64,000 bases of DNA from sequence record PZ543597.1, one strand, 5' to 3'. Below the pieces are notes generated by a model that saw only the letters and a program-made list of their open reading frames with translations, was not told the origin of the DNA and made no database searches. The position numbers were made by a program, and so were the translations under genes. The DNA comes from a phage. Shown in pieces: positions 60,500 through 61,266 of the stretch. Each line of letters starts with the position of its first letter. Positions within the stretch are counted from its first letter, which is position 1.

Positions 60500-60988
60500 A
60501 TGAATATATTTGAAATGTTACGTATAGATGAAGGTCTTAGACTTAAAATCTATAAAGACACCGAAGGCTATTACACTATTGGCATTGGTCATTTGCTTAC
60601 CAAAAGTCCATCACTTAGTGTTGCCAAATCTGAATTAGATAAAGCTATTGGGCGTAATTGCAATGGTGTAATTACAAAAGATGAGGCTGAAAAACTCTTT
60701 AATCAGGATGTTGATGCTGCTGTTCGCGGAATTCTGAGAAATGCTAAATTAAAACCAGTTTATGATTCTCTTGATGCTGTTCGCCGCTGTGCATTAATTA
60801 ATATGGTTTTTCAAATGGGAGAAACCGGCGTGGCAGGATTTACTAATTCTTTACGTATGCTCCAACAAAAACGCTGGGATGAAGCAGCAGTAAATCTAGC
60901 CCAATCTAAATGGTATCGTCAGACACCTAATCGCGCGAAACGCGTAATCTCAACATTTAAAACAGGAACTTGGAAAGCGTATATATGA
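60500..60988 (+). CDS. e: endolysin (T4 lysozyme)
   Basis: 162 aa; [39 protein letters not shown]..., near-identical to T4 lysozyme as recalled (catalytic E11, D20, T26 present). Confidence 0.97.
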
Positions 60989-61266
60989 AAACATATAGTG
61001 AATTTTTATCAGAATCTATTCTTAACGAAGCTACTGACACATTTGCAACTAAGCTAGGTGCAGCTTTGGTTGAAGCTGAAAGTCTATTAGCACGTATTTC
61101 TGAACTTGCTAGTAAGATAGATACTCGCAAATTTGAACGTACCAGCGATATCGTTAAGCTTGAAGCCTTGTTGCGTATGTGCGATAAACCAGAAGAAATC
61201 GCTAAGAACGGCTCGCTAATGAAACAACGTCTTGAAAAATATATTTCAGGCGCTTCAGAAAAATAG
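60985..61266 (+). CDS. internal-protein-like head protein with capsid-targeting leader ([10 protein letters not shown])
   Basis: 93 aa; ATG overlaps the e stop (ATGA); leader fits the IP capsid-targeting motif. Confidence 0.7.

Follow-up and report, generated by a model that had tools for sequence, protein, structure and literature searches.

The open reading frame (ORF) whose start codon is fused to the stop codon of the lysozyme gene e, in a 64,000-nucleotide stretch of phage DNA (record PZ543597.1; referred to below as the window), very likely encodes an internal head protein (IP) of the Ip5 family. Internal head proteins are carried in the phage head and enter the host with the DNA, probably as a means of disarming host restriction. 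The wider interpretation, which we consider likely, is that of a Tequatrovirus protein encoded at the hypervariable IP locus between e and denV, which would be packaged, injected, and active in a putative anti-restriction pathway. The region matches hundreds of Tequatrovirus (T4-like) genomes at 95-98% identity. The gene is already annotated in many relatives and is an ordinary member of a known family, not new in kind. The features that bear on this interpretation are collected in Table 1.

Table 1. Coordinates of the Ip5-type gene, its neighbours, and related features in the window
Feature	Coordinates	Strand	Evidence or remark
nudE	60008-60463	+	PHROG/Pfam matches
Two T4-type late promoter motifs (TATAAATA) upstream of e	60466-60473, 60479-60486	+	Motif scan
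RNA hairpin pairing the e Shine-Dalgarno sequence and AUG in transcripts started upstream	60463..60505	+	-15.5 kcal/mol, z -4.47
Lysozyme gene e	60500..60988	+	162 aa; Pfam Phage_lysozyme
ATGA overlap of Ip start codon and e stop codon	60985..60988	+	Sequence reading; putative translational coupling
Ip5-family internal head protein gene	60985..61266	+	93 aa + stop; PHROG 3499, T2 Ip5 homology, dN/dS
Capsid targeting sequence, residues 1-10, with gp21 site L8-S9-E10	60985..61014	+	Y4, F7, L8, and E10 match IPIII-mapped positions
Residues 11-15 (SILNE), second possible gp21 site L13-N14-E15	61015..61029	+	Sole site kept in P0004 (LNE) and T2 Ip5 (ITE)
Early-promoter-like element and stem-loop after the Ip stop; right cassette boundary	61268..61321	+	-18.2 kcal/mol, z -3.46
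denV (endonuclease V), conserved right flank of the IP locus	61325..61741	+	PHROG 1183 E 2.8e-62; Pfam Pyr_excise
gp22 scaffolding core protein, in trans; core to which the leader targets IPs	21827..22636	-	Pfam T4_CASP E 2.5e-90
gp21 prohead protease, in trans	22667..23305	-	Pfam Peptidase_S77 E 8.6e-111

A conserved coding gene on the stop codon of e

On the + strand, the genes follow in the order nudE, e, the Ip5-type ORF, and denV. The e gene ends ...AAA GCG TAT ATA TGA, with its TGA stop at 60986-60988, and the ORF runs from an ATG at 60985-60987 to a TAG at 61264-61266, the four bases ATGA being common to both. An earlier note on this DNA had described the ATG as overlapping the e stop, and the two reading frames bear this out. 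Annotations of Kha5h, OES_C-2, and ime09 show an identical 4-base overlap. An in-frame TTG upstream, at 60970, was also considered as the start codon and was rejected; it is out of frame with the ATG in a homologous metagenomic T4-like contig (SRR11615226_3030, designated L008).

The ORF is a conserved coding gene under purifying selection. Compared with its copy in L008, DNA identity is 86% and protein identity 89%, 24 of the 38 differences are third-position changes, and dN/dS comes to 0.11, close to the value for e itself in the same comparison (0.14). Proteins at least 80% identical to the product occur in 239 phage records, with e adjacent in all of them, and both frame and length are preserved in more distant homologues (61%, 49%, and 44% identity). 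These data weigh against the alternative that the ORF is a chance open frame in the e-denV spacer that is not translated. Such a frame would fit the lack of a strong Shine-Dalgarno sequence and of a promoter belonging to the ORF, and many GenBank records label the product just 'hypothetical protein'. It is difficult to reconcile, however, with the low dN/dS or with an ORF unbroken in 239 records and in homologues of as little as 44-61% identity; furthermore, the leader pattern described below appeared 0 times in 200 shuffles, and the alignment-based structure model is confident (mean pLDDT 80) and contains three helices. Chance is a vanishingly improbable explanation.

The product matches PHROG 3499, 'internal head protein' (E 1.2e-46; residues 1-87 of 93 against profile positions 1-85 of 85), and aligns with T2 Ip5 at 48% identity over 84 aa (BLASTP, E 5e-23). 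It is 100% identical to RefSeq proteins named 'internal head protein' in Kha5h, ime09, phi25-307, and others, which carry the note "RB69ORF127c". A conserved family motif, KLGxAL.EAE.L..RI.ELA...K..A.L..C...EIAKNGS.MK.RL, is common to the product and T2 Ip5. Searches of Pfam, NCBIfam, and PADLOC returned no match for the ORF. The family is small: exhaustive HMMER searching yielded four clusters at 50% identity among 1.84 billion representative proteins, having added just three clusters to a word-indexed homologue search that recovered near-identical proteins only. Ip5 and later IPs were reportedly first described by Repoila et al. in 1994. One Ip5 homologue, in phage Killian (OQ446694.1, 87017-87262), is labelled 'MazF family toxin-antitoxin system protein'; no search supports this label, which is likely an annotation error.

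Leader, predicted cleavage, and the mature protein

In T4 IPIII, the first 10 residues suffice for packaging; targeting depends chiefly on positions 4 and 7, processing on positions 8 and 10, and the prohead protease gp21 cuts after L/I-x-E (PMC9026906). The Ip5-type protein has Tyr4, Phe7, Leu8, and Glu10 at the positions occupied in IPIII by Tyr4, Phe7, Ile8, and Glu10, and the gp21 motif allows either Leu or Ile at position 8. A strict leader pattern, MK[ST][YF]..F[LI].E, was searched against the six-frame translation of the whole window and against 200 shuffles. Four matches were found in the window, each opening an ORF (52449, 55482, 56081, and 60985), and none in the shuffles (0/200). 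The earlier note had proposed that the product opens with a variant of the capsid-targeting leader, which is upheld by the match to the strict pattern and by the retention of all four IPIII-mapped positions. Its count of four leader-bearing genes at three loci within 10 kb is also correct, the observed span being 8.8 kb.

No member of the Ip5 family departs from M1, K2, T3, and F7, and each has an L/I-x-E motif that ends at residue 10, 11, or 15. A propeptide-closing L/I-x-E is expected at 10-19 residues; the Ip5-type protein has LSE, reaching residue 10, and LNE, reaching residue 15. Besides gp21 and gp22, the window also encodes the portal. Cleavage after Glu10 is predicted to leave 83 residues (9.2 kDa, pI 6.3), and cleavage after Glu15, 78 residues (8.6 kDa, pI 8.1). 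The mature protein would be roughly neutral, with basic and acidic residues equal in number; IPII, IPIII, Ip4, Ip5, and Ip7 are more basic (pI 9.1-9.7; about 9.6 for T4 IPII and IPIII).

An AlphaFold model built from an eight-sequence alignment (mean pLDDT 80, pTM 0.63) contains a short leader helix (residues 4-9), a low-confidence non-helical linker (residues 11-15), and helices spanning residues 18-44, 53-65, and 69-88. Foldseek, run with both models, found no PDB entry below E 1.9, and a profile search of PDB sequences gave just weak matches to designed helical proteins. The sole structural neighbour in BFVD was a 'putative internal head protein' of phage VR26. No direct evidence of any Ip5 in virions, cleaved or injected, was found in the literature, including reports on UFV13, fPS-65, and BrxU; the virion analysis of UFV13, which has an identical copy of the Ip5-type gene, identified four gel bands only (PMC5931544), the fPS-65 report includes no proteomics, and IPs are not a subject of the BrxU report.

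A protein packaged by means of this leader could serve head assembly or DNA packing and not counter-defence, and T4 IPIII provides a precedent. IPIII mutants halve the rate of head assembly, cut burst size, and accumulate polyheads, and IPs co-purify with gp22 (PMC9026906); the window phage is without IPIII, so a substitute is possible. A small, roughly neutral mature protein is nevertheless a poor fit for neutralising DNA charge. In addition, the gene is absent from many close relatives (in Bas37, e is followed directly by denV) and so is dispensable, and there are only four clusters at 50% identity, a patchy and fast turnover typical of arms-race genes. An assembly role is considered unlikely, though it is the strongest competitor of the injected inhibitor discussed below.

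Cassette exchange at the IP loci

The interval downstream of e is an IP locus known to be polymorphic. In T4, e is followed by ipIII, ipII, and denV; in T2, by ip4, with no denV; and in Bas37, by denV, with nothing between. The Ip5-type gene, denV, and ip4 follow e in Kha5h and ime09, and the Ip5-type gene and denV follow it in the window and OES_C-2. In L008, the order is the Ip5-type gene, a second leader ORF, denV, and a third leader ORF; the leader ORFs around denV there (2520-4437) are the Ip5-like gene, a 91-aa ORF (MKTYNEFIAESTLNE...), and a 99-aa Ip7-like ORF. The ip4 gene (157 aa, leader MKTYQEFITE) lies directly after denV in Kha5h, ime09, and many close relatives and is absent from the window and OES_C-2, an indel of ~490 bp (window 61742-61840 versus 3353-3826 in Kha5h, L001).

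Two of the three Ip5 subfamilies, the Ip5 of T2, Bas37, and ime09 and the metagenomic P0006 (the closer relative, 61%), follow 57B directly, at the other IP locus. The Ip5 type and the Ip5-type e-linked gene seldom share a genome: the 510 matches come from 497 records, and therefore at most 13 records have two copies. Strict mutual exclusion of the two was rejected, as ime09 carries both. Because T4 has two IP genes between e and denV and the window has one, the arrangement is one of cassette replacement, and the Ip5-type gene is a cassette moved between the two IP loci, replacing ipIII and ipII rather than adding to them.

The junction with e was compared in the window and L008. In L008, e overlaps the Ip5-like gene by 14 bases, versus 4 in the window; the 14 bases that close its full-length e (164 aa), ATGAAAACCTATAA, open the Ip gene in another frame, and so give both the lysozyme end YENL and the leader start MKTYN. 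T4 e ends ATAAAAATCTATAA. Four bases (TATA) present in the window and not in L008 reduce the overlap to ATGA, and e then ends in YI where L008 has YENL; the window lysozyme ends ...TGTWKAYI, and that of T4 ends ...TGTWDAYKNL. The e genes of T4, T2, and Bas37 are homologous to that of the window as far as 60983, two bases short of the Ip ATG. The last e codons have been reshaped by the junction with the Ip cassette. The last bases of e and the first bases of the leader coding sequence are nearly identical, which offers a plausible site for the recombination that would have placed the cassette at e; the fusion to the e stop could have arisen because almost one and the same sequence is read, in different frames, at the e 3' end and the leader 5' end.

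Published counts of T-even IP variants are at least 10 (PMC12373910) and more than 30 (PMC2839356), and promoter-plus-stem-loop elements flank IP cassettes (PMC2839356). The earlier note had read the four leader genes as an expanded injected-protein repertoire relative to the three of T4. The number stands, but it is not a notable expansion, with four such genes in Bas37 and five in ime09, and it lies within known T-even variability. The excess over the three of T4 is due to the unannotated leader ORFs at 55482 and 56081, not to the Ip5-type gene at 60985.

These two ORFs (55482-55955, 157 aa, MKSYTQFLNE; 56081-56644, 187 aa, MKTYAEFLTE) lie on the + strand, with the tRNA cluster on one side and e.8 on the other. 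PHROG 2280, 'unknown function', is the match for each, and each is basic (pI 9.5). The 187-aa ORF has 165 matching phage records and is called 'hypothetical protein' in every annotated one among the matches listed. A TATAAATA late-promoter motif at 55436-55443 precedes the ATG of the 157-aa ORF by 38 bases. IP genes are confined to two loci according to PMC2839356; this pair looks like a third IP locus missed by annotation. The remaining leader gene, a 77-aa ORF on the + strand (52449-52682; MKTYQEFIAETADVK...), is located directly after 57B, matches PHROG 8111, 'internal virion protein', and is 100% identical to Bas37_0260 of phage KarlGJung, a McrBC type IV inhibitor in a 2025 preprint (10.1101/2025.11.20.689424). 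A ~70 bp repeat (TTAAAATAATTTCACAAAGTTGTTTACATA...GTGATACTATTA...CATCAAAA) precedes each ipI-locus cassette in T2 (ip5 and ip7; copies at 2925-3000 and 3255-3330 in L004), and the window has a copy at 52370-52440, ahead of the 52449 gene. A flanking repeat of this kind could mediate cassette exchange.

Expression, proposed function, and named systems

The TATAAATA motif is enriched in the window (24 observed vs 9.9 expected). The only late motifs able to serve the Ip5-type gene are the two before e, with none between e and the ORF. The hairpin over the e start (Table 1) matches the late-only control of translation published for T4 e; at the Ip start, there is no significant RNA structure (z -0.4). 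A weak Shine-Dalgarno sequence, GGAAAG, lies 7 bases upstream of the ORF. By its geometry alone, the overlap suggests translational coupling of the two genes. With no promoter of its own, the Ip5-type gene would be transcribed from the two late promoters before e, ribosomes terminating on e would reinitiate at the ATGA with its weak GGAAAG, and the gene would inherit the hairpin-controlled, late-only translation of e. Termination-reinitiation would thereby tie Ip synthesis to late e translation, the timing needed by a prohead-core component. The weak Shine-Dalgarno sequence could also permit independent, possibly early, translation.

The right boundary of the cassette consists of GTTTAC (61268-61273), a 15-base gap, and TGATACTAT (61289-61297), combined with a 10-bp inverted repeat (TTCCTCCAAG / CTTGGAGGAA; arms 61274-61283 and 61312-61321) that pairs the denV Shine-Dalgarno sequence. 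The same GTTTAC...TGATACTAT element is found after e in T4, T2, and Bas37; its position is before ipIII in T4, and after the Ip5-type gene and before denV in the window. It was not listed by a sigma-70 scan. From its form and its conservation in T4, T2, and Bas37, we infer that it is an early promoter, and it resembles the promoter-plus-stem-loop elements around IP cassettes (PMC2839356). Transcripts from e or the Ip gene would hide the denV ribosome-binding site, and those started at the putative promoter would lack the 5' arm.

The start codon fused to the e stop, together with late promoters common to both genes, would also suit an unpackaged late cytoplasmic protein tied to lysozyme, such as a regulator of lysis or of lysozyme itself, with the leader a leftover of cassette recombination. 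The 14 bases common to the e 3' end and the leader 5' end in L008 show that this stretch participates in recombination or overlap, in keeping with that explanation. The leader is, however, conserved at the protein level exactly at the targeting and cleavage positions, in members that have diverged elsewhere, and linkage to e is not a family trait, given that two of the three subfamilies lie after 57B, far from e. The product also has no transmembrane segment (maximum 19-residue hydropathy 1.04) and no similarity to any lysis protein family. A role tied to lysozyme is very unlikely.

For the preferred reading of a packaged Ip5-family protein, the leader would dock the product on the gp22 scaffold core, and gp21 would remove 10 or 15 residues (after Glu10 and/or Glu15), so that the head would hold a mature product of ~8.6-9.2 kDa, helical and roughly neutral. 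This mature protein would be injected with the DNA, and it may block a type IV (modification-dependent) restriction enzyme directed at glucosyl-hmC DNA. It has no likeness to Ip1, Ip2, Ip3, Bas37_0260, or solved structures, so the argument for an anti-restriction role is one of analogy only, and we regard that role as evenly balanced. T-even internal proteins form a toolbox of highly specific injected type IV inhibitors. Ip1, Ip2, and Ip3 are directed against three GmrSD variants, each blocking one distinct enzyme with no cross-protection, and are mutually dissimilar beyond the leader (PMC12373910); the leader-bearing Bas37_0260 inhibits McrBC (preprint 10.1101/2025.11.20.689424). Since the characterised inhibitors are themselves mutually unrelated (PMC12373910), the absence of a relationship to them does not count against an inhibitor function. 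By the same analogy, an injected inhibitor of another modification-dependent nuclease would fit the Ip5 family, which is patchily distributed, diverges rapidly, and is dispensable. A more tentative proposal, held with somewhat less conviction than the anti-restriction role itself, is that the protein is a candidate inhibitor of a type IV variant outside the range of Ip1, Ip2, Ip3, and Bas37_0260, with the e-stop fusion acting as a late-only device through the e promoters and hairpin-gated translation.

Among sequenced phages, about 500 have an Ip5-type protein; many of these phages are therapy candidates, and finding the target of the proteins would add another inhibitor-enzyme pair and aid host-range prediction. 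The gene is a well-defined, widespread candidate for a target test and a clear example of an IP cassette swap between the two IP loci. More noteworthy than the gene itself are the unannotated leader ORFs at the apparent third locus and the identity of ORF 52449-52682 with the McrBC inhibitor.

Compared with named systems, the product has full-length homology to T2 Ip5, the same type of leader, and a similar size. The Ip5 genes of T2, Bas37, and ime09 are located after 57B (the ipI locus) and have their own early promoter and stem-loop, whereas the window copy begins on the e stop codon, at the second IP locus, with no such promoter. T2 Ip5 has only the ITE15 site and no Glu10 site, whereas the window copy has both LSE10 and LNE15; T2 Ip5 is also basic (mature pI 9.2), in contrast to the roughly neutral window copy. 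[quoted passage not shown] The alignment with T4 IPII is confined to the 11-residue leader; no similarity to the mature parts of T4 IPII and IPIII was detectable, and they are assigned to other PHROGs. The early promoter behind e precedes ipIII in T4; in the window, it comes after the Ip5-type gene, which abuts e. Targets of T4 IPII and IPIII have been shown by experiment, namely the GmrSD enzymes of ECOR21 and ECOR17 (PMC12373910), and the Ip5-type protein has no such target. Bas37_0260 and T4 IPI*, a GmrSD inhibitor, are also small leader-bearing proteins from Tequatrovirus IP loci. Both are unrelated in sequence to the window protein beyond the leader, and IPI* has a mixed fold of beta-sheet and helix (PMC3012670), whereas the window protein is predicted to be all-helical. 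Bas37_0260 and IPI* show that leader proteins of this kind are injected inhibitors of type IV restriction (10.1101/2025.11.20.689424, HIDEN-SEQ preprint; PMC12373910; PMC3012670).
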